Source: a virus
IMG/VR virus record: IMGVR_UViG_3300002520_000024
Span: 1-64,000 of that record
Length of the DNA: 64,000 nucleotides
Direction: 5' to 3' (one strand)
Below, piece after piece: positions 5,820 through 54,923 of the stretch. The notes under the pieces were generated by a model. The model did no database searches and was not told where the DNA came from. It worked only from the letters and a program-made list of their open reading frames with translations. Made by a program: the position numbers and the translations under genes. The stretch's first letter is position 1; each line of letters begins with the position of its first letter.

Positions 5820-6572
5820 ATGGCAACTGCAAACACCAGACGAAACGACGACGCAAACGAGGCAGACCTCTACATCACCCAACCGGAAGATGTGGCCTGC
5901 CTCTTTGTCATGCTTGAGAAGCACGGGATAAGCCTGCCACATGGGACAATCCGTGAGCCGTTTGCCGGTCGCGGCGATATTGCCAAGTACCTTGAGCGCC
6001 GCGGGTATACCGTGGTGAGTACAGATCTGAACGATTATGGCGATTGGGGTTACGGGAAAAGCGGGGAGGACTTCTTCAAGCAGGACTTCACCCAATGCGC
6101 CGCCATTGTAACCAACCCACCGTACTCTGAGATCAATGATGTGGTGCGCTACCTCGGCGACGAGATGCCAGAGCAGTCCATGGTTTGCATGCTGGTGCGC
6201 CAGCAGTTTCTGGAGAGCGCCGATCGCGTGTCGATCTTGCAGCAATACGGTGGCCTGAATTGGGTATTCCAGTACGCCTATCGCACCCTCTGCCCGCGGA
6301 TAGACCACACCACCGGTGAAGCCATCTACCATACTGAGAAGGTTGTTGGTGGCAAGACCAAGAAGACACCTGAGCCGCGAGCTGTGGCCTACTGCTGGGT
6401 GGTCTTCGATTACAGCTACACCGGCCCAGTAATGCTGGATTGGATCACCAAGGATGTGCAGGCTGCAGCCCGGGCCGAGATGGTCAAGTTGCCAATCCAC
6501 CCGGAGGATGCCAAGCGTGCCGATCAGCGGGTGGCAGCAAAAACTGGCGGGTTTAAAATCGGGGTGTTTTAA
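5820..6572 (+). CDS. DNA N6-adenine methyltransferase
   Basis: SAM-binding motif EPFAGRGDI and catalytic motif IV IVTNPPYSE. Confidence 0.8.
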   Translation: MATANTRRNDDANEADLYITQPEDVACLFVMLEKHGISLPHGTIREPFAGRGDIAKYLERRGYTVVSTDLNDYGDWGYGKSGEDFFKQDFTQCAAIVTNPPYSEINDVVRYLGDEMPEQSMVCMLVRQQFLESADRVSILQQYGGLNWVFQYAYRTLCPRIDHTTGEAIYHTEKVVGGKTKKTPEPRAVAYCWVVFDYSYTGPVMLDWITKDVQAAARAEMVKLPIHPEDAKRADQRVAAKTGGFKIGVF

Positions 6573-6629
6573 TTTCAAAAATCCTGCAAAAATAAAAGCC
6601 TGCAGGATCTAGCAATCAGAGGAAACACC

Positions 6630-7520
6630 ATGTTCAAGATAGGCGGCAGTCAGCCAGCGCCCCAGGCCAGAGAGCCTGAGCACCTGGAGGTAATACCGGC
6701 TGAGACCAGGCCAGCAGTTGCGCTTATCGACGAGCTGGTTACCAGGGTTGGCGGCATTGACCCTGGAACTGACATCGACGACCAGGGGCTGGCCGAGCGC
6801 GATGCTGGTATGGCCAGCTTCGCCACGCTGCCGGCTGACGAAAAGCACGCAGTGCTGCAGCTTATCCAGATGGAGGAGTCGGATCTGTTGCGCATGGTTC
6901 AAAACTCTGGGGCTATGCTCGGGCAGTCCCGCGAGAGCCGACTGGCGAGAGAGGCCCGCCTAGCCCTGGTGCACCGCATGACACTGCGCGGCGACACACT
7001 GGAGAGAATGTCTATCCGTCTTGGCATCAGTATCAGCCGGGTTGCCCAGCTGAAGAAGGTGGTTAACGAGCGGATCCGTAACCAGATCTCCAGGGTGGAT
7101 TTCGGCTTGTACGCTGGGCAGCAAATGTCCTTCTACCAGCAGGTAAAGTACACCGCCCTCAGCCTCTCCGAGGACAAGAGCATGCCAGCCACCGCCAAGA
7201 TGTCAGCCCTGGTGCTGGCGCTACGGGCAGCAAAGGACGAGCAGGGTTTCCTGCGGCACTGTGGGGTGTTCAAGCAGTTCACCCATGGCGATGACCTGAT
7301 CAAGCGCCTGCAGACCGAGGACAATGGCACCGGCGGCTCAGCCAACACCATGACCGACATAGCGATGGCCTTCAAGAAGATGGCTGTCATCGCGGCCAAG
7401 GGTGGGAACCTGGAGGAGGCTGTCGACGCCGTGCTGGTCGAGGAGAACAAGCTGTGGGAAGAGTCTGATGTTTTCGACGCTGACGACGAGGACGGATCCC
7501 CGCTCAACATTGGCCAATAA
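6630..7520 (+). CDS. DNA-binding protein with sigma-70 region-4-like HTH
   Basis: REARLALVHRMTLRGDTLERMSIRLGISISRVAQLKKVVNERIRN resembles the sigma region 4.2 / LuxR-type HTH. RBS GAGGAA. Confidence 0.6.
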   Translation: MFKIGGSQPAPQAREPEHLEVIPAETRPAVALIDELVTRVGGIDPGTDIDDQGLAERDAGMASFATLPADEKHAVLQLIQMEESDLLRMVQNSGAMLGQSRESRLAREARLALVHRMTLRGDTLERMSIRLGISISRVAQLKKVVNERIRNQISRVDFGLYAGQQMSFYQQVKYTALSLSEDKSMPATAKMSALVLALRAAKDEQGFLRHCGVFKQFTHGDDLIKRLQTEDNGTGGSANTMTDIAMAFKKMAVIAAKGGNLEEAVDAVLVEENKLWEESDVFDADDEDGSPLNIGQ

Positions 7521-7542
7521 AAGTTGAGAATTTCCACAAAAT

Positions 7543-7579
7543 AAAAAGCCTGGTGAAAATAGCATCAGGCTTTTTTTTC
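7543..7579 (+). terminator. rho-independent terminator
   Basis: AGCCTG-13 nt-CAGGCT followed by T8. Confidence 0.6.
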
Positions 7580-7613
7580 TGGAAAAAACCTGGAAATTTC
7601 CACAAATAAAAAA
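7567..7613. repeat. left copy of a ~45-bp imperfect direct repeat flanking the early cluster
   Basis: AGGC-T8-CTGG-A6-CCTGGAAATTTCCACAAATAAAAAA aligns with 16396-16440. Contains a TTTCCACA DnaA-box-like 9-mer and a T/A palindrome. Confidence 0.5.
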
Positions 7614-7752
7614 GCCTGTAGAAACTAGCAATTCCAGAGATCCGGGAGGGCGCCGTCGCGCCTCTCCTCGCCAGGCGGCAGGCAGGGGCGGGCGCCAGGC
7701 TGAGCGGGCGGTTGCGTTATGGGGCAGGCGGGGGACTGGTCTGATCTCACTA

Positions 7753-7768
7753 TGGCACGCGGCTTGCA
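7753..7768 (+). promoter_or_regulatory. sigma54-type -24/-12 element
   Basis: TGGCACGCGGCTTGCA is a full match to TGGCACG-N4-TTGCW. Confidence 0.45.
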
Positions 7769-7778
7769 TAACGGTGCT

Positions 7779-8070
7779 GCCAGGACGCCACAGGTAAGGC
7801 CCTGCCCTTGATGGCAGGCCGCGCCAGTAGCAGCAGGCGGGGCGCTGTTGGTTCGGTCAATGCCAAGGTGGCGGGGTAGGTTGGCGGTTCGCCACAGGGC
7901 CGCACAATCGCCAACAAGGCGGGGGCCAATGATGCTGTTTCGGGTTTGCGTGGTGTTGTTGCAGTGGATCGGGGTATCGTTGCGAATCCGGCCCCTACTG
8001 TTGCAGGATGGGGGCCTAGTGTCACGGCGGCCAGGCAATAGAAAAGGGGGCCACCAGCGGCCCCCTTTTT
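7779..8070 (+). ncRNA. candidate structured ncRNA (~290 nt)
   Basis: GC-rich stretch with no credible ORF, lying between the sigma54-like element and a strong terminator. Many local hairpins, e.g. GTGGCG...CGCCAC and GGCCCC...GGGGGCC. Confidence 0.3.
8042..8070. terminator. bidirectional rho-independent terminator
   Basis: AAAA-GGGGGCC-accagc-GGCCCCC-TTTTT. Confidence 0.75.
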
Positions 8071-8071
8071 G

Positions 8072-8197
8072 CTACATCAGGATCAAGATCTTCCAGTCAA
8101 CCGCCAGATACAGCAGGACGGCGACCACTATCAAAAAACCCTTGTAAATGACTTTCCATTGCTTTCTGTGATCATCCCATTTCTGGGGGCTACTCAT
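8072..8197 (-). CDS. small membrane protein (41 aa)
   Basis: ATG overlaps the upstream stop (TAATG). Sequence MSSPQKWDDHRKQWKVIYKGFLIVVAVLLYLAVDWKILILM has one TM segment. Below the ORF-track length cutoff. Confidence 0.4.
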   Translation of the reverse strand: MSSPQKWDDHRKQWKVIYKGFLIVVAVLLYLAVDWKILILM

Positions 8198-8508
8198 TAG
8201 CCCGCCACGATATGCCCAAGGCCATCAAACAGCCTGACCGATTGCTTGACCTCTTGCCCCATCAGGTAAACGCGCTCGCTTACCTCTACGCCGGATCCGG
8301 TCACAATCGCCACCATGGTGACAGTGACCCCGCTCGGCTTGGTGTTGTTGCAGGACAGACAGATCGGGCCGCCTTGCTCTTTCTGGTGCACCAGGATCGG
8401 CCCGTGCTGCTTGTGCGGTTGCAGGGCGTCCAGGATGGCAGGGGTAACAGACACCAGCCCGAACGGGCCGGAGATCTTGCGCTGGTTGCGTCTTTTTTTC
8501 GTGCTCAT
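8197..8508 (-). CDS. hypothetical protein
   Basis: 103-aa ORF. ATGA coupling to the upstream gene. Confidence 0.6.
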   Translation of the reverse strand: MSTKKRRNQRKISGPFGLVSVTPAILDALQPHKQHGPILVHQKEQGGPICLSCNNTKPSGVTVTMVAIVTGSGVEVSERVYLMGQEVKQSVRLFDGLGHIVAG

Positions 8509-11750: not shown

Positions 11751-11792
11751 AGTATAGCGACCACTATTTAAATAACAGTGATCGCCGTCACA
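11751..11792 (-). promoter_or_regulatory. class-II-type promoter with CRP-like dyad
   Basis: Dyad AGTGATCGCCGTCACA at 11777-11792. -10 TATACT at 11751-11756, 28 nt from the centre. Confidence 0.6.
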
Positions 11793-12475: not shown

Positions 12476-12718
12476 CTTTTCAGCCTTGAAGTGATTCAGC
12501 GCGGATTCGAGCAGATCGGCCGCCTCCTGCTCTGTGCACACCAAGCGGTGATCCCATGCAAGGTGCAACAGGTCGGTGATCAGATCTTTGGTAGCATCGA
12601 TCTGGTCTTGGCGCGGCATGCTATCGGGCCAGCCCTTGGGGTTGCGCTTGGCATAGTGCATTTTCAAGGCTTCACGTGCCGCACGGGCGCGGGCTTGATT
12701 CTCGGTTTCGGTTGTCAT
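12473..12718 (-). CDS. hypothetical protein
   Basis: 81-aa ORF. Leader CAAGGAAAGAGG. Confidence 0.65.
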   Translation of the reverse strand: MTTETENQARARAAREALKMHYAKRNPKGWPDSMPRQDQIDATKDLITDLLHLAWDHRLVCTEQEAADLLESALNHFKAEK

Positions 12719-15912: not shown

Positions 15913-16310
15913 TCGCCCCCTTGAGCCCGATAGTGATCCCCCAGGGTTTGAAGCATAGCGCGGGCGCCTGCTTTCCACTCCTCGCACTCTTGCTCATAGG
16001 GCACAGCCTCAACCTTGAAATAAACCTCTGCCCCCCTGTGGTTGTAGAGCGACACTAAATCAGCCGCTTCCTGTGCACCATAGCGGCGGGCTTTCATTGG
16101 CACGGGGTCGAAAGTGGTAGTGCCCCGCAACTTGACAAGGTAGCCGGATCGGTAGGCTTGCCCGACTGCATCGCTTGAGGTGTCAGGGTTCGCTATTACG
16201 CGGATCAAGTAACCGCGATCACCCTCGCCTAGCTCTTGATAGTGGTGCAGGGTAACGGCGGCTTGCAGGTTTTGCATGAGATCCGCCAAATACAGATCAA
16301 AGGCTTTCAT
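15909..16310 (-). CDS. hypothetical protein
   Basis: 133-aa ORF. Leader CAAGGAAAGAGAAG. First gene of the leftward cluster. Confidence 0.7.
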   Translation of the reverse strand: MKAFDLYLADLMQNLQAAVTLHHYQELGEGDRGYLIRVIANPDTSSDAVGQAYRSGYLVKLRGTTTFDPVPMKARRYGAQEAADLVSLYNHRGAEVYFKVEAVPYEQECEEWKAGARAMLQTLGDHYRAQGGE

Positions 16311-16341
16311 CTTCTCTTTCCTTGTTGGTTACTGTTGGGCC

Positions 16342-16384
16342 ACTATAGCGGCCATCTTTTAAAAAAACCGTGCTGGTTGTCACA
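16342..16384 (-). promoter_or_regulatory. class-II-type promoter with CRP-like dyad
   Basis: Dyad CGTGCTGGTTGTCACA at 16369-16384. -10 TATAGT at 16342-16347, 29 nt from the centre. Confidence 0.65.
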
Positions 16385-16395
16385 CTTTTCGATAA

Positions 16396-16440
16396 AGGCC
16401 TTTTTTTCAGAAAAAGAGCTGGTTTTTTCCACAAAAAAAA
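16396..16440. repeat. right copy of the ~45-bp imperfect direct repeat flanking the early cluster
   Basis: AGGCC-T7-CAG-A5-GAGCTGGTTTTTTCCACAAAAAAAA aligns with 7567-7613. Confidence 0.5.
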
Positions 16441-16581
16441 TTGCATGGCGGATCTAGGGATTCTCTCCTCTCCTCCCCCTCCCCCCATCCCCTGGCGCCC
16501 CCTCCCTGGCGTGGATTCGGGGGACTACCCAAGACAGGGGGCCAGCATCACCAGGATCGGCGAACTGGTCGGATCTCTGTT

Positions 16582-17368
16582 TGGCATGGCGCTTGCATGG
16601 GTCGGGGGGCGACAGGCAAGAGCTGTGCCAAGTTCGCGCCATGCAAAAGGAAAGGCGAGCCAGAAAATCGGTATGCAAAGCCCGTGCCAAAATGGCGGGC
16701 TACCCCTCGCAGAAAAAACGGGGGCATGCAAGAGACGTGCCAACATAGGCGGATCCCTCCCTAGACATTTTAGGGACACAAACCCAAGCAAGGGCCGTGC
16801 CAGTTTTTTACTTTTCTTGCCAGGTAGCCAAAAAAACCGCCAGCCCAGCAAAAAGCGTGCCAAGACGCAACGCCGAAAAAAGGGCGAGCATCCACAGCAA
16901 ATAACATGCCAAGATCACCATGATCCGGCCTCCATTAGATCGGTTTCCTAGTGCCGATAACCCTAGCCCAATGGCAAGAAAAAACCAGTGATCGGCGTCA
17001 CATTTTCACCCTGTAAAGGCTAAAAACTTTTGCCGTCAAAAACCGTGCCAACAATGCACCGTTTTTGTGATTCACGTCAAATACTTAACACACAAGGAAA
17101 AACGGGGGCCGTACCATGCAAAAACGGGGCCAGATCACCCCCTATAGAGCAGGATCTCCAACGTATGCAAACCCCGTGCCAACCCATGCCGAAAATCGGG
17201 GCCGACTGGCCGATCATAGTAGTGCATCTAGTAAGAGATCTGATCCCTTTGCGGTAGCAAATTACGTGCCACAAATAAAACTTTCCTCCTCCAGATCGCT
17301 TGTCCCGTGCGCCGCTTCCTTGCACCATGAAAATAATAACGCGCCTTCTCCATGCAAGGCCCGTGCCA
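16582..17368. repeat. tandem array of sigma54 -24/-12 consensus-like elements (iteron-like)
   Basis: Eleven minus-strand copies start at 16615, 16674, 16727, 16787, 16847, 16896, 17035, 17117, 17166, 17256 and 17353 (16 nt each). One plus-strand copy lies at 16582-16597. No credible ORF in the region. Confidence 0.7.
16960..17002 (-). promoter_or_regulatory. possible class-II-type promoter inside the repeat array
   Basis: Dyad AGTGATCGGCGTCACA at 16987-17002. Weak -10 TAGGGT at 16960-16965, 29 nt from the centre. Confidence 0.4.
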
Positions 17369-17399
17369 CGTCACGGATTTTCTACGCCGTGAAAAACTT

Positions 17400-17461
17400 T
17401 GTGACGCCGCTCACACTTTTTTACTTTGTCGCCTTGCGCCTTCTTTTTTCTTGCCTATAGT
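17400..17461 (+). promoter_or_regulatory. sigma70-like promoter with upstream CRP-like dyad (class-I-like position)
   Basis: Dyad TGTGACGCCGCTCACA at 17400-17415. TTGCGC (17434-17439), 16-nt spacer, TATAGT (17456-17461). Dyad centre is at about -60. Confidence 0.45.
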
Positions 17462-17511
17462 CAAAGGGCACTAAGGCGAACCCGCCACAACCACGAAAAG
17501 GAAATCTGACC

Positions 17512-17772
17512 ATGAAAGCAAAAGAAGTTATCCAGACCTTGGGCCGCCAAACCCGCAACGCCGCTTTTGTCGAGTGCCTGCCCGTGTCCCTTCTTTTTGG
17601 TGACACCTCCACCACTTATCTCGGTGGCGAGGCCGTACCGCCCAGCGCCAAATATCCGACCCGCGCACAATTCAAAATCCGTGCCAAGGTTGCGGCGCTG
17701 GTCGGTTGCTCCACGGGCGACTTTGAGGCCATCGATCGCCACCTCAACAACGCCGCCAGTTACCGCGCATAA
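17512..17772 (+). CDS. hypothetical protein
   Basis: 86-aa ORF. RBS AAAGGAAA. Confidence 0.55.
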   Translation: MKAKEVIQTLGRQTRNAAFVECLPVSLLFGDTSTTYLGGEAVPPSAKYPTRAQFKIRAKVAALVGCSTGDFEAIDRHLNNAASYRA

Positions 17773-17789
17773 GCAAAGGATGTGCCAAA

Positions 17790-17999
17790 ATGAAAAGCCT
17801 TGTTCAAGCCGTAGATCTGGGGACGGCTCCCCGTATGTTTGATCTCTACATTGGGCTGATCCGTGTCGGGTATGTCGGGCAGGTTGGCGAGTGCCGTTGG
17901 CGGGGCTGGTTCAACGGGCACGGGCAGATCGTGGGCGATACCCTTTTGCAAGTTTTGGGCCAAGCCGAAACCATCGCCCAAGAGGGGGACAAGGCATGA
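17790..17999 (+). CDS. hypothetical protein
   Basis: 69-aa ORF. Confidence 0.5.
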   Translation: MKSLVQAVDLGTAPRMFDLYIGLIRVGYVGQVGECRWRGWFNGHGQIVGDTLLQVLGQAETIAQEGDKA

Positions 18000-18112
18000 T
18001 CGACAGTCTGGTTTTTCTGGCCCTCTTTGTGGGGTCGGTGATCGGGGCCGCTGTGACGGGCGGCCTAGTTCCGGCTCTGGTTGTGCTCGTGCTTTTCTCC
18101 ATCGCCGCCTAG
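17996..18112 (+). CDS. small membrane protein (38 aa)
   Basis: ATGA overlap with the upstream stop. Sequence MIDSLVFLALFVGSVIGAAVTGGLVPALVVLVLFSIAA. Confidence 0.4.
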   Translation: MIDSLVFLALFVGSVIGAAVTGGLVPALVVLVLFSIAA

Positions 18113-18340
18113 CAAAACCCGTGCCATCTTTTTATGCGCCGATCTGACTAGATCGCGCTATTCAATAGTTGAGAGGGGGCCTTTATGGTTATGGCGCAAC
18201 GGGGGGCCGATCGCTGTAATCGCGTCCTGCGCGTTTTGGCGAGGGCCGTTTTTGCCGATCGGGCCGTTTTTGGCCTGGCAACCTGGCACGGTTTTTGATC
18301 ACTGCTTATCCATTCATTTGGTTGCATAGACAAAAAACTA

Positions 18341-18401
18341 TGTGATCAACGTCACATTTTCTTTCTTTTCCCCGCGCAAGTTTTCGGGGCTTGGCTATAC
18401 T
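18341..18401 (+). promoter_or_regulatory. promoter with perfect CRP-type dyad upstream
   Basis: Dyad TGTGATCAACGTCACA at 18341-18356. -10 TATACT at 18396-18401. Dyad centre is at about -60. Confidence 0.4.
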
Positions 18402-18455
18402 TATCACATCAGGTAGGGAATGACTCCCCGCCGCACGTGAGAAGGAATGCCAGCC

Positions 18456-18680
18456 ATGAAAACCGTTCACACTATCTTGTCAGGCCTGCTAAACCCGTCA
18501 GTCTGCGAACTGGAGGAGGCCGCCTATCAGGTCGGTCGTTTCGAGCAGTCCGCTATTATGGATCCCGAGCTGGAGCGCCTGATCAGTGAGACTTATCCCG
18601 ACAGCGATCTGATCTGGTCTCGTTGCTATGACGCGCACCAGCAGGGCCGCGCTGACCAAGACGCCCAAGAAGCCGCCTAA
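18456..18680 (+). CDS. hypothetical protein
   Basis: ATG 18456 lies 9 nt after GAAGGA. Confidence 0.55.
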   Translation: MKTVHTILSGLLNPSVCELEEAAYQVGRFEQSAIMDPELERLISETYPDSDLIWSRCYDAHQQGRADQDAQEAA

Positions 18681-18721
18681 TCCGAATCAAAAACCGTACC
18701 AACTTTTAAGGAATCGATATC

Positions 18722-19483
18722 ATGAAAATGCCCGCCCTTGTCGAACTGAAAACCGCTGCCCCGTCCTTTGACCGTTGCGCCGAGATTGCAAGAGTCGTGC
18801 CACTTCAAGAAGGTTGCGAGCTGGTGATCACCGACACCATGATCCGCCTGATTGCCCAGAATGGGGCCGAGTTCACATTCTATCGGGGCGACTGTGCCCG
18901 CGCTGTGACTGAGGGCATGTTTACTTGCCTGATGGCTCTTCGTGCCGCGCCTGCTCCCCACTATGTCGAGATGGGGCGCAAGGGCGACAAGGTGAACACT
19001 CACAAGGTGATCGGCATTGACCACCGTCCGATCCTCCAGACTGAGGATGACTGCGAACTGTGCGACCCCGAGCAGGCGAACCTGTTTAGTGTCTATGTCG
19101 TGCTCGCCGTTGATGGCTGGGAACTTTCCTACCACTACGCCGATCACCAGACCCTTGACGCGGCAAAAGAGCAGGCCGATCTGTTGGCACAGGTTTTGAA
19201 TGTGGTTCACACCTACACCACCGAGAGCGAGGGGGAGCAAGTCCAGAGCGAGCCGGACGCTGACGGATTCGGGGCCGAGCATGATCGCGCCGTAGTCGAG
19301 GCCCTGATGCACATTGCCGAACACGGGGCGCAGGATCTGTCTATCCTGTCTCACGTGCTGGAGTACGATCTCACGTCTGCCGAGTGCAGCCTGATCGGGC
19401 GGTTCCGCCGTGGTGCCAACGTAGACGGGGATCACGCTGCCCTTGCCGCACTGGCCCAAGCCATCCAGAATGGCGAACGGTAA
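18722..19483 (+). CDS. hypothetical acidic protein
   Basis: 253-aa ORF. RBS AAGGAA. The antisense ORF 18677..19501 looks non-protein-like. Confidence 0.65.
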   Translation: MKMPALVELKTAAPSFDRCAEIARVVPLQEGCELVITDTMIRLIAQNGAEFTFYRGDCARAVTEGMFTCLMALRAAPAPHYVEMGRKGDKVNTHKVIGIDHRPILQTEDDCELCDPEQANLFSVYVVLAVDGWELSYHYADHQTLDAAKEQADLLAQVLNVVHTYTTESEGEQVQSEPDADGFGAEHDRAVVEALMHIAEHGAQDLSILSHVLEYDLTSAECSLIGRFRRGANVDGDHAALAALAQAIQNGER

Positions 19484-19504
19484 AAGCAAACCCCATGCCA
19501 ACTT

Positions 19505-19527
19505 GCCCGCCCTGTGCGGGCTTTTTT
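19505..19527 (+). terminator. rho-independent terminator
   Basis: GCCCGC-cctgt-GCGGGC followed by T6. Confidence 0.7.
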
Positions 19528-19654
19528 ACGTCCGGATTTTTCGGGGCTACCCTGGCCCGTTGGCATGATACTTGCTAGGCGCAATCACAGAAGAGTTGGC
19601 ATGCTTTTTGCGGGCCTACCCCCTCTCTCACAGATCTATGACAAAAGTTTTTTT

Positions 19655-19815
19655 GGGCGTGCGGGCGACGACGAAAAAATTATGGAAAATATTTTTAGGG
19701 GGCGTTGGGGTGTGTGAGGCGTGAAAAGATGTGGGGCGTGATGGCGTGGGGCGTGAAAAAACTATGGTCGTGACGGGGGCTCTGGGCGTGATAAATATTT
19801 TTGTGGCGGGCGTGG
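19655..19815. repeat. cluster of direct GGCGTGA-type repeats flanked by AT-rich tracts
   Basis: At least 8 copies of G(G)CGTG(A/G) in about 160 bp, e.g. GAGGCGTGAAAAG, GGGGCGTGATGG, GGGGCGTGAAAAA, GGTCGTGACGG and GGGCGTGATAAA. AT-rich tracts at 19671-19697 and 19791-19804. Confidence 0.5.
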
Positions 19816-19861
19816 GGCGGCGAGGGTCGATAAAAAGAGAGGCCAAACGAAAAACTGGTAA

Positions 19862-19891
19862 AAAATTTCGCTTGGCCATTGGCCAATAGGT
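19862..19891 (-). promoter_or_regulatory. conserved 30-nt element with TTGGCC/GGCCAA palindrome (terminator-like), copy 1
   Basis: AAAATTTCGCTTGGCCATTGGCCAATAGGT. Lies downstream of gene 19928..20401 on the minus strand. Confidence 0.4.
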
Positions 19892-19927
19892 AGGGACGAC
19901 TGGCCTACGGCCGTGACCAGCCAGCGG

Positions 19928-49546: not shown

Positions 49547-49593
49547 TAGCCGGTGTACCATTGGGCCAGACTCGCCTTTATAGGATCTGGCCC

Positions 49594-51429
49594 ATGTTTG
49601 ACAATCTCAATCACGCTCAGCTCTGCAGCCTGGCAGAGCAGGCCATAGAAATAACCCCGCCCGGGGAATGGCGGGAAGACCTCAAACTCAGCCTTGAGAT
49701 GTATAAGGCCGGTACTAACCGGATGCGCATCTTCTATTTGCTGATGCTTGAGAAATACCCTGTCGATATTGAAACCTTCCTGTTCGACCCTCAATACATG
49801 AATGCCAAGCGCCACCTGTGGCCAGAGATGGTGCCATTCATCAAAGAGGTTAATAATCCCGATGGTGACAGGCTGGGGATGCGGTACCACGAGGTTGTGC
49901 TTACCGGCGGTATCGGTACTGCCAAAACCACACAGGCGCTCTACGGCCTGGCCTACCAGCTCTACCTGCTATCCTGCTATCGGGAGCCACATCTGGTACT
50001 GGGCCAAGACCCCAGTGCGGAGATCCTGTTTATCTTCCAGTCCATCAACACCAAGGTGGCAAAGAACGATTACCTGCGCTTCCGGAGGATGATTGAACGG
50101 TCGCCGTATTTCCGTGACAACTTCAATTTTCGTCGAGACATTGAGACGGTGATGCTGTTTCCGCACTCGATCGAGGTTCAACCTGTTACCGGTGAGGTGA
50201 CGGCTACTATCGGTACGAACGTGCTCGGCGGCCTGATTGACGAAGTGAACTTCATGATCAGGACGAAGAAGTCCAAGAAATCCTCTGGTGGCAGCGGCGA
50301 CTTTGACCAGGCATCAGAACTCTACAACTCCATCGACTCCCGGCGGAAATCACGATTCATGGAATTGGGTTGTGTACCTGGACTCCTGTTTATCGCCAGC
50401 TCGAAGAACTACCCTGGTCAGTTCACCGACCTGAAAGAAAAGGAGGCTCTGACCAACCCCGGGATCTACTACTGGGACAAGCGGATCTGGGATGTTCGAC
50501 CAAACAAGTTCGGCAAGGAGCGGTTCCCAGTATTCGTCGGTGACATCAGCACCCAGCCTTTCATTGTTGACGAGCGCCACCCAGCGCCGAAGGGGGCGCA
50601 GGCCAAGGGTCTGATTGACTGGATCCCCATGGACTACCTTGACCGGTTCAAGGCAGACATCTACAACTCGTTGCGGGAGATTGCAGGGCGGTCCACCTTG
50701 AGCACCTGCCCATACATGCCAAATGCCAGAGCTGTCAGTGCCGCATTCAGACCTGCTGTGCAGTCAGTGGTGCTGCCAACCCTGGTGGACTTCGACCAGA
50801 TTTTCCCGATGGCCTACCCGCAGTACATCTTCAACAGGCACCTGCCGCGGGCGGTGCACGTTGACTTGGCAATTAACGGGGACATTGCCGGTATCAGCTG
50901 CGGCTACGTCGAGAAATTTGTATCGGTGCAGGATGAAGGCGAGAGCTATATGATGCCGTTCATCCGCTACGACTTTGTGATGGGTGTGCGGGCGCCGTCA
51001 GGTGACGATATCCAGTTCAGCAAGATCCGATTGCTGATTGTGCAGCTATTCAACATGGGCGTGCCGATAAAATGGATCTCCTTCGATACCTTCCAGTCCA
51101 AGGACTCCCAGCAGATCCTCAAACAGAAAGGCTTCATCACAGGTGAGGTATCGGTCGACGTTACCCCGCTGCCCTACGACTGCTTCAAGACTGCTATCAA
51201 CCAAGGCCGAGTGGCTGCACCACCAAACGAAGATGCGATGATTGAGTGCATCCGGCTGGAGCGTGGTGCTGACGGCAAGGTTGACCACCCTGCTGATGGT
51301 AGCAAGGATATGTCGGACTCCATGGCAGGGGTTTGTTACGTGCTGACCATGCGCCGGGAGAACTGGATGCTCCACGGGGTGCAGCCTAAATTCCCTGTTC
51401 GTGACGTGTCTCGCAAAATCGGGGACTGA
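49594..51429 (+). CDS. terminase large subunit
   Basis: Walker A-like LTGGIGTAKTT, Walker B LGGLIDEVNF, and a C-terminal nuclease-like acidic motif (VHVDLAINGD). Size about 610 aa. Confidence 0.75.
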   Translation: MFDNLNHAQLCSLAEQAIEITPPGEWREDLKLSLEMYKAGTNRMRIFYLLMLEKYPVDIETFLFDPQYMNAKRHLWPEMVPFIKEVNNPDGDRLGMRYHEVVLTGGIGTAKTTQALYGLAYQLYLLSCYREPHLVLGQDPSAEILFIFQSINTKVAKNDYLRFRRMIERSPYFRDNFNFRRDIETVMLFPHSIEVQPVTGEVTATIGTNVLGGLIDEVNFMIRTKKSKKSSGGSGDFDQASELYNSIDSRRKSRFMELGCVPGLLFIASSKNYPGQFTDLKEKEALTNPGIYYWDKRIWDVRPNKFGKERFPVFVGDISTQPFIVDERHPAPKGAQAKGLIDWIPMDYLDRFKADIYNSLREIAGRSTLSTCPYMPNARAVSAAFRPAVQSVVLPTLVDFDQIFPMAYPQYIFNRHLPRAVHVDLAINGDIAGISCGYVEKFVSVQDEGESYMMPFIRYDFVMGVRAPSGDDIQFSKIRLLIVQLFNMGVPIKWISFDTFQSKDSQQILKQKGFITGEVSVDVTPLPYDCFKTAINQGRVAAPPNEDAMIECIRLERGADGKVDHPADGSKDMSDSMAGVCYVLTMRRENWMLHGVQPKFPVRDVSRKIGD

Positions 51430-54458: not shown

Positions 54459-54923
54459 ATGGCACTGAATGTACGGATACCGGTAGGCGGTGATTTATTC
54501 ATCGGGCCACACCATTTCACGATAGAGCACGGCGGTGATGACTGCTTCTTATTGATGGAGCGCGACGCCCTCAATAGCAGTGTCAACCTGGCCGTTACCC
54601 AGAACAGATCAGCACACCTTCAAATAGGCGATGATGTCGCCGTCATCACTCTTGCCAATGGCAGCAACTCCTACCGCGTAGCCCTCAGTATCGACGCCCC
54701 AAAAAGCATCTCTATTCTGAGAGGTGATCTGTATCGCAAAACCGGTGGGATTTTTGTTGTATCCTCGGCAACACGAGAAAGTATCTCCAGTGGACACAAG
54801 GTAGTCAAAAGCGTCGAGCAGCTGATCGAGCTGGCCAGCCCCTATCGCGGGCGCAATGGCTGGGTCGCGTTGGATGGCTTGATGATCGAGATTGCCGGTA
54901 CCGAGATCGTCAGCATCAAGTAA
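54459..54923 (+). CDS. CsrA/RsmA-like RNA-binding domain protein (possible tandem repeat)
   Basis: LAVTQNRSAHLQIGDDVAVITLANGSNSYRVALSIDAPKSISILRGDLYRK aligns by eye with E. coli CsrA [49 protein letters not shown]. The N-terminal ~40 aa form a weaker second copy. Confidence 0.6.
   Translation: MALNVRIPVGGDLFIGPHHFTIEHGGDDCFLLMERDALNSSVNLAVTQNRSAHLQIGDDVAVITLANGSNSYRVALSIDAPKSISILRGDLYRKTGGIFVVSSATRESISSGHKVVKSVEQLIELASPYRGRNGWVALDGLMIEIAGTEIVSIK

Follow-up and report, generated by a model that had tools for sequence, protein, structure and literature searches.

The 64 kb of DNA analysed here (the window) come from an uncultured phage of ∼94 kb, the other ∼30 kb of which were seen in part. 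A stretch of the window at 7640–8070 lies inside a 551-nucleotide (nt) gap (7521–8071) between two convergent gene blocks, and we propose, tentatively, that it forms the body of a G-rich non-coding unit, which stands alone, is probably transcribed and may function through its base composition and a short core. The presence of such a stand-alone non-coding unit, extending from a promoter-like element to a bidirectional terminator, in all known relatives is well supported. The locus is a candidate for a new non-coding unit of an unusual kind, apparently conserved in base composition but in neither sequence nor fold. An earlier note on the same stretch had described it as a candidate structured RNA with a sigma54-type promoter; the non-coding character, the terminator and the membership of the sigma54-type element in a family are borne out, whereas sigma54 as the defining promoter, the structure and the enhancers are not.

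Architecture and conservation of the unit

The features of the gap and its surroundings, in window coordinates, are as follows.

6571–6618, plus strand: motif A copy 1, which ends ∼18 nt before the ATG of the putative terS-like gene (…GGATCTAGCAATCAGAGGAAACACCATG)
6630–7520, plus strand: putative terS-like gene, encoding a helix–turn–helix (HTH) protein of 296 residues; last gene of the rightward block
7526–7569, plus strand: motif A copy 2, embedded in the T1 hairpin; direct repeat D1, 80% identity over 46 nt
7537–7581, no strand assigned: T1, intrinsic terminator of the terS-like gene; inverted repeat I2, AAAAAGCCTG…CAGGCTTTTTTTT, with flanking A-run and T-run
7592–7635, plus strand: motif A copy 3, putative promoter or cis-element of the unit; predicted start near CTAGCA (7625–7630)
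7636–8040, plus strand: G-rich body, 40% G and 26% C; non-coding and fast-drifting, 250–410 nt in relatives
7753–7768, plus strand: sigma54-type −24/−12 element TGGCACGCGGCTTGCA; predicted start near 7779; lineage-specific
7855–7879, plus strand: conserved core GGTCAATGCCAAGGTGGCGGGGTAG; 21-nt core at 7855–7875, ∼25 nt with its flank; family pattern GGTYAATGCNNNGGTRGCSGG
8001–8007, plus strand: TTGCAGG element near the 3′ end
8042–8069, no strand assigned: T2, bidirectional intrinsic terminator; inverted repeat I5, AAAAGGGGGCC/GGCCCCCTTTT, 11-bp perfect stem and 6-nt loop
8072–8197, minus strand: last gene of the converging leftward operon, followed by 8197–8508 and onward
16423–16464, plus strand: motif A copy 4, followed by a C-rich leader and a sigma54 array on the opposite strand

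A search of 5.8 billion proteins gave only six homologues of the 296-residue protein; their contigs, together with two contigs reached through other proteins of the window, were used as the set of relatives. These fall into six lineages (the window with L002, L269 and L271; L003, L004 and L011; L005; L006, L007 and L008; L009; L010). The convergent layout is identical in six of six, each with an uncalled gap of 380–680 nt at the equivalent place, and on this evidence the unit appears to be shared, in position and architecture, by a small family of uncultured tailed phages of ∼90 kb. Protein-anchored scans of viral, metagenome and genome collections yielded one further locus only (L011), and a homologue search with the 103-residue neighbour returned nothing but the protein itself. 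DNA-level BLAST of the region and of the surrounding 20 kb against 50,697 phage records gave no match. The L001 contig ends at the equivalent of window position ∼7652 and that of L002 at ∼7800, so that two independent assemblies break within the block; this suggests strain-level heterogeneity of the phage populations, or low coverage there.

The first conserved part in an alignment of the gaps is motif A, a 45-nt element with the approximate consensus TGGAAATTTCTACAAAATAAAAAGCMTGNNGGATCTAGCAA, copies of which were located by nhmmer using a profile of 10 copies. Its two conserved halves are held at a fixed internal spacing of 25 nt. All four positions are filled in L003, L005 and L009, while the L006 and L008 loci stop short of the fourth; the copy-1 position is also filled in L006, and the equivalents of copy 4 lie at 12531 in L003, 11391 in L005, 12351 in L009 and 10387 in L010. 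In L010 a distinct version of the motif fills three of the four places, the exception being the position before its terS-like gene, which indicates that motif A co-evolves within each genome. Three lineages have the motif 17–20 nt ahead of the start codon of the terS-like gene; in L003 and L005 it lies farther upstream. Given this placement before a ribosome-binding site and a start codon, motif A may act as a promoter or bind a transcription factor specific to the phage, and the simplest reading is a promoter recognized by a phage-specific factor. Between the window and L269, the region of T1 and motif A has diverged by 1.7%, compared with 8.9% in the block. Inspection by eye gave no fit to a sigma70, extracytoplasmic function (ECF) or sigma28 promoter or to a DnaA box (the CCACA part is unconserved in relatives), and the spacing is incompatible with sigma70 geometry. 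Motif A is absent from Stenotrophomonas phage DLP5 and Aeromonas phage HJ05, two known phages discussed below.

Directly 3′ of motif A copy 4 is an extremely C/T-rich tract (CTCTCCTCTCCTCCCCCTCCCCCCATCCCCTGGCGCCCCCTCCC, 16464–16540, plus strand), and a C-rich tract occupies the equivalent place in L003 (from 12566), L005 (from 11426) and L009 (from 12386). The plus strand of the window tract would be a good Rho substrate and its minus strand a G-rich leader for sigma54 transcripts. Pairing of the G-rich RNA of the unit with this C-rich leader at 16.46 kb is no better than in shuffles.

The core occurs once in the window, and its distance from motif A is similar in all lineages (187–229 nt). 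Scans of metagenome, viral and genome collections with the core pattern gave more than 250 loci, all of which lack motif A except L135, on the same contig as L011; no attB, host or new homologue emerged from them, and a host search with the exact L009 string against genome contigs gave no match. The genome matches proved to be unrelated coding sequences reading VNAxVAG (for example ParA and an aldehyde dehydrogenase in Comamonadaceae). In the alignment, the TTGCAGG element precedes the terminator in most lineages; the hexamer TTGCAG is enriched in the block (five occurrences versus 0.9 expected).

The gap holds two terminators. The position of T1 is conserved in relatives, and T1 gives terminator-like matches in the E-value mode of Rfam. 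T2 corresponds to the strong terminator described in the earlier note at 8042–8070, its perfect 11-bp repeat spanning 8042–8069, with the correction that it is bidirectional: because the inverted repeat is flanked by an A-run and a T-run it can act both ways, and it also terminates the converging minus-strand operon. It has the properties of an intrinsic terminator, with the A/T runs on both sides included in the stem; it went unlisted in a simple terminator scan, probably because pairing draws these runs into the stem. A hairpin stands at the place of T2 in all relatives, with stem sequences that differ between lineages.

Composition, divergence and coding potential

The block was previously characterized as GC-rich. 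Its G+C content (64–66%) is indeed above the window mean of 57%, but the excess is modest and unexceptional, some coding stretches reaching 65%; the true anomaly is strand-specific G-richness. On the plus strand the block is 40.5% G over 400 nt, which is the maximum of the window and 3.9 standard deviations above its mean. The G fraction of the body is 39–42% in all lineages but the most divergent, L010, where it is 35%; the G skew is ∼0.2 in five lineages and ∼0.05 in L010. The composition and length class of the body are thus kept although its sequence drifts.

The extent of this drift is considerable. Outside motif A, the core, TTGCAGG and the terminator, the bodies cannot be aligned between lineages, even by short-word BLAST. 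The window and L269 are 97% identical over 16 kb, and their blocks differ by 8.9% overall (12.6% in the 5′ part and 6.1% in the 3′ part), compared with 1.1–3.7% for the flanking genes and 0.7–10.4% for the third codon positions of these genes. Between L006 and L008, the block differs by 9.7% and a 21-nt indel, compared with 0.5–1.2% in the flanks; the two flanks of the L006/L007 pair differ from each other in divergence (0.6% versus 3.9%). The body therefore diverges at about the synonymous rate or faster. An excess of G↔T changes is marginal (p = 0.04) and is expected from the composition.

No credible gene was found within 7521–8071, in agreement with the earlier assignment of the region as non-coding. 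The three open reading frames (ORFs) considered in the earlier note show no codon-position GC periodicity (0.64/0.64/0.70 for the ORF at 7625–8038 on the minus strand, versus about 0.6/0.4/0.7 in real genes), have no Pfam match and are not conserved as ORFs in relatives. The window contains no second copy of the block, such as would form the template/variable repeat pair of a diversity-generating retroelement, and no tandem repeats were found.

A protein-coding gene that has degenerated or shifted frame, or one for a small protein with the motif VNAxVAG, nevertheless deserves consideration, since the core reads V-N-A-x-V-A-G in one plus-strand frame with several of its variable positions at third codon positions, L010 seems to be short of exactly three bases in the core, and occurrences of the 21-nt pattern in bacterial genomes are mostly coding (e.g. 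ParA). In addition, an 89-codon open frame runs through the core in L005, and the five differences between L006 and L007 all fall in one phase. Protein-like substitution patterns, which the earlier note had named as the sign of a frameshifted gene, were looked for and not found: the period-3 variation of the core is not significant (p of about 0.1, our own estimate from the variable core positions), and the flanking stops vary by lineage, immediately preceding the core in L003 and L009 and immediately following it in the window. Starts, stops and flanking residues are not common to the lineages, many of the indels between L003 and L005 have lengths that are not divisible by three, and at 15% A and 18% T chance alone yields long open frames. 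With the lack of GC periodicity and of a Pfam match, these observations make a coding origin highly improbable, and we have rejected it.

The sigma54-type element and the sigma54 array

The element at 7753–7768 is an exact instance of TGGCAC-N5-TTGCW, with its GG and GC one helical turn apart. The window contains ten exact TGGCACG-N4-TTGCW sites, compared with 0.02 in shuffles, and 27 sites when one mismatch is allowed, compared with 4.2 expected. The sigma54 consensus recognized in the earlier note is accordingly present exactly where it was placed, far beyond chance and as a member of an enriched family. Its role as the promoter that defines the unit could not be upheld. The site is identical in L002, L269 and L271, but the homologous gap of L003, L005, L009 and L010 has no sigma54 site and L006 and L008 carry a strong one on the opposite strand, pointing back at motif A; an element that is missing in four of six lineages and inverted in one cannot define the unit. 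The 110 nt upstream of the element, which had been suggested to hold enhancer sites, are the fastest-diverging part of the block, with the 12.6% divergence from the close relative noted above.

The more striking feature of the genome is a sigma54 array at 16.6–19.6 kb. Nine of the ten exact sites are found at 16.6–18.8 kb, and about 20 sites in all lie at 16.58–19.58 kb, mostly on the minus strand. The array (16582–19597) is densest at 16630–17368, where six tandem sites (16630, 16689, 16742, 16802, 16862 and 16911) follow each other at a spacing of 49–60 nt, and includes a face-to-face pair at 16582 (plus) and 16630 (minus). It fills a non-coding leader of ∼1 kb between motif A copy 4 and small plus-strand genes and points towards a leftward operon that starts at 16310. 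In L009 the start of a similar minus-strand array (12507–12666) lies beside the fourth motif A copy, which makes the array a family trait at least in part; DLP5 and the 8-kb HJ05 locus have no sigma54 sites. Compared with the window, L269 has extra DNA of about 350 + 420 nt between aligned segments at 16325–16398 and of ∼430 nt at ∼19504, so that even close relatives differ in the structure of the array region. A second strongly G-skewed stretch borders the cluster on its far side, at 19627–19903 (plus strand; up to 42% G and a skew of up to 0.6 over 200 nt).

Palindromes resembling CRP/FNR sites (TGTGA-N6-TCACA, with at most one mismatch) are also frequent, with 18 in the window versus 1.8 expected. 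They include sites at 11777, 12780, 16987, 17066, 17400, 18341, 24718, 27129, 29783, 31750, 38267, 46405, 60805 and 61451, of which those at 17400, 18341 and 61451 are perfect. Several look intergenic, and on the strand read a T run comes after those at 16987, 17400 and 18341.

Proposed function and alternatives

The pattern of conservation, in which composition, ends and core are kept while the sequence drifts, points to a device that depends on composition. We propose that a plus-strand RNA of about 440 nt (about 7628–8070) would be made from motif A. In the lineage of the window only, the element at 7753–7768 would add a nested, activator-dependent start near 7779 and an RNA of ∼290 nt; alternatively, it may be a binding site at which the sigma54 holoenzyme sits as a closed complex, and since a bound holoenzyme would work in either orientation this would fit the inverted site in L006 and L008. 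The least certain steps concern what the unit does. Its untranslated plus-strand RNA, rich in G and poor in C, would be a poor Rho substrate and could reach the terminator, and the core might be the place where this RNA meets its partner, a protein or a second RNA. The minus-strand reading of the block would give an untranslated RNA, rich in C and poor in G, just past the end of the leftward operon, which would suit Rho; termination there might halt read-through from the converging operon before it enters the terS-like gene in antisense.

Several observations weigh against this proposal. None of the results is a positive sign that the product works as an RNA. Substitutions between close relatives are placed as if at random (p = 0.16, from the longest substitution-free runs), and no substitution-free island, including that at the sigma54 site, is significant; together with the high divergence, this leaves no detectable purifying selection on the sequence of the body. 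Constraint on the core shows only in distant comparisons, which cover no more than five or six lineages. Motif A fits no known promoter class and could instead bind a protein, the adjacent HTH/terS-like protein being one candidate. The unchanged sigma54 site in close relatives is weak evidence, as a 16-nt site escapes change with a p of about 0.12 at the local rate. Sigma54 needs an ATP-dependent activator (a bacterial enhancer-binding protein, bEBP), and no Sigma54_activat (bEBP) or sigma54 domain was found among the 137 ORFs of the window; the activator is possibly supplied by the host. Searches of the window and five relatives against Rfam at the gathering score gave no match to any family, Qrr, GlmY/GlmZ, GOLLD, ROOL, 6S RNA and tmRNA included, with only terminator-like noise in E-value mode, and with the terminator excluded the minimum free energy (MFE) of the block is unremarkable (z = −0.13 for 7630–8040 and −1.18 for 7779–8040). 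Around the core, an alignment of 70 nt yields next to no consensus structure (−0.5 kcal/mol).

The remaining folding results are of the same kind. Across seven sequences, the plus-strand z-scores relative to dinucleotide shuffles range from −1.24 to +1.26 without the terminator; 7775–8075 reaches −2.9 with the terminator included, and the terminator is the source of the excess. The abundant GC hairpins noted earlier are therefore no sign of structure. For L006, L007 and L008, RNAalifold returned a positive covariation term, with 17 broken pairs and one compensatory pair, and two-sequence alignments, which have no power, gave one double change each. Convincing covariation was thus not found among relatives, terms being near zero or positive and many pairs broken, in a comparison limited to six lineages with unalignable bodies. 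Candidate local helices can be picked out by eye (CCUGCC with GGCGGG of the core; 7880–7889 with 7906–7915, the latter showing one U–A to G–C switch relative to L269), but their register is inconsistent across lineages and such pairings are cheap at 40% G. A conserved fold is not supported by this comparison of only six lineages.

Since the phage encodes a CsrA homologue, a CsrA sponge of the CsrB/RsmZ type was also tested. It was rejected: GGA is depleted in the block (23 versus 31.7 expected, z = −2.1) and ANGGA occurs once versus six expected. The CsrA-family protein (54459–54923, plus strand) is encoded just upstream of the DNA polymerase gene and is also present in the close relatives L266–L268; it matches Pfam CsrA with E = 1.9e-6 and 28.2 bits (cut-off 27) and is 33% identical to Escherichia coli CsrA over 51 residues.

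Among the alternatives, a cis-acting R-loop element would account for many of the same facts. Here a transcript from motif A would remain hybridized to its template and prime or license replication, or mark the start of packaging beside the terS-like gene, and only composition, promoter and one short site would need to be conserved. A promoter-like motif followed by a sequence of 40% G with G clusters is found in all lineages, the sequence being free to drift; the divergence between L006 and L008 exceeds the local synonymous level (9.7% versus 0.5–1.2% in the flanks); the contigs of two independent assemblies (L001 and L002) break inside the block; the phage encodes a family A DNA polymerase; and the unit adjoins the terS-like gene. 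We nonetheless regard such an element as unlikely. A strong terminator closes the unit, unlike in ColE1, and downstream there is neither an AT-rich unwinding element nor a primosome site. The cumulative GC skew has no origin-like turn beyond the effect of the gene-strand switch, the G↔T excess is marginal and follows from composition, and the raised divergence may reflect mosaic recombination, as the unequal flanks of L006 and L007 illustrate. The original proposal of an enhancer-activated, Qrr- or GlmY/GlmZ-like structured regulatory RNA of about 290 nt (about 7779–8070) driven by sigma54 fares slightly worse. It can draw on a perfect −24/−12 consensus from a strongly enriched family, a terminator 290 nt downstream, the z-score of −2.9 for 7775–8075 and the location of the core within this 3′ part. 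Set against these are the loss or inversion of the promoter in five of the six lineages, the drop of the z-score to −1.18 once the terminator is removed, the absence of an Rfam match, of covariation and of a bEBP among the window ORFs, and the rapid divergence of the supposed enhancer stretch, which leave this proposal distinctly unlikely.

The block could also be a mostly functionless spacer between convergent operons, with real signals set in neutral DNA and a G skew produced by strand-biased mutation under transcription. Its synonymous-level divergence, random-like placement of substitutions, variable length and lack of structure signals are what such a spacer would show. On the other hand, all the lineages retain a gap of 380–680 nt although their genomes are tightly packed elsewhere, the spacing of motif A and core is similar among them, and a skew of ∼0.2 in five lineages (∼0.05 in L010) together with a shared 21-nt core would be hard to keep unselected; we give this possibility little weight. 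A more speculative idea, to which we attach a similarly low probability, is that the family is wired into host sigma54. The family would then have a tandem array of about 10–20 sites facing a phage-specific promoter, with satellites such as that at 7753, and the G-rich unit would be a composition-dependent device (R-loop primer, packaging signal or directional Rho insulator) gated by sigma54 holoenzyme that binds or fires within it; such gating could explain a site in either orientation across lineages. We know of no description of sigma54 wiring on such a scale in phages. A stand-alone G-rich unit that works through composition and core remains the account we tentatively favour.

The neighbouring gene and the affinities of the phage

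The 296-residue protein encoded next to the unit gives weak Sigma70_r4 and HTH_23 matches. Its model has an HTH followed by long helices, at low confidence (predicted local distance difference test score, pLDDT, of 54); a fold search with it was uninformative, and a profile search against PDB sequences gave no match. The sole homologue in a known phage is found in Aeromonas phage HJ05, where its gene stands between those of a methyltransferase and a TerL homologue and overlaps the latter. The HTH matches, the low-confidence model and the HJ05 gene order led us to label the protein terS-like; it could alternatively be the factor that recognizes motif A. A methyltransferase gene precedes the HTH gene in both the window and HJ05. 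In the window the HTH gene is 42 kb from the TerL gene (49561–51429), whereas in HJ05 the two are adjacent and overlapping.

Other phage genes in the window encode a family A DNA polymerase, a portal protein, a Mu-F-like head protein, an XkdF-type protease and an exonuclease. A 622-residue protein shares 46% identity with the protein annotated as large terminase in Stenotrophomonas phage DLP5, and the closest known polymerases (45–49% identity) are those of Vibrio siphophages of the SIO-2/VHS1 type and of DLP5. Judged by DNA polymerase and TerL, the nearest known kin are thus SIO-2/VHS1-like Vibrio phages and DLP5. ARAGORN found neither a transfer RNA (tRNA) nor a transfer-messenger RNA in the window; the relative L009 has two tRNA genes (1284–1357 and 1367–1440) upstream of the syntenic gene block.

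Relation to known systems and significance

The closest formal resemblance is to Qrr1–5 of Vibrio and GlmY/GlmZ of enterobacteria, which likewise combine a perfect −24/−12 element, a non-coding stretch and an intrinsic terminator. The unit does not match their Rfam models, its predicted RNA is longer (290–440 nt versus about 100–200 nt), its sigma54 element is unconserved in relatives, and neither an activator gene nor a conserved upstream site was found. Sigma54-dependent promoters have been described before in a phage, Pseudomonas phage YuA (Ceyssens et al. 2008, as cited in PMC10914365); going by that citing account, it is a tailed phage that apparently uses host sigma54 alongside a phage-specific conserved promoter motif, as may be the case here. 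The two phages have no sequence relationship, with no DNA match in the phage collection, the present one is known from sequence alone, and its dense array of about 20 sites contrasts with the one promoter that the same account associates with a sigma54-like region in YuA.

With ColE1 RNA II and T4 oriF/oriG the unit shares a promoter followed by a G-rich non-template strand, a likeness of composition only, as well as a family A DNA polymerase and a function that could rest on composition rather than sequence; it differs in ending at a strong terminator and in having neither homology to them nor a conserved antisense regulator. Rho utilization (rut) regions resemble its minus-strand reading, which is untranslated, C-rich, G-poor and just past the end of an operon. 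The block, however, follows an intrinsic terminator and has its own opposite-facing promoter-like element and a conserved core, neither of which a rut site needs. GOLLD and ROOL are also long non-coding units with their own terminators in phage genomes, but the present unit has no Rfam match, no detectable conserved structure or covariation and far lower sequence conservation.

If transcribed, the unit would be a new phage non-coding locus conserved in base composition instead of sequence or fold, and elements conserved in this manner are missed by design in homology and covariation searches. The evidence also points to a possible group of environmental phages with heavy use of sigma54-type promoters, alongside a co-evolving promoter-like motif of their own and CRP-like sites. 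Through the ATP-dependent activator that sigma54 requires, such promoters would tie phage expression to a specific host signal, which would offer a testable route to conditional phage development.

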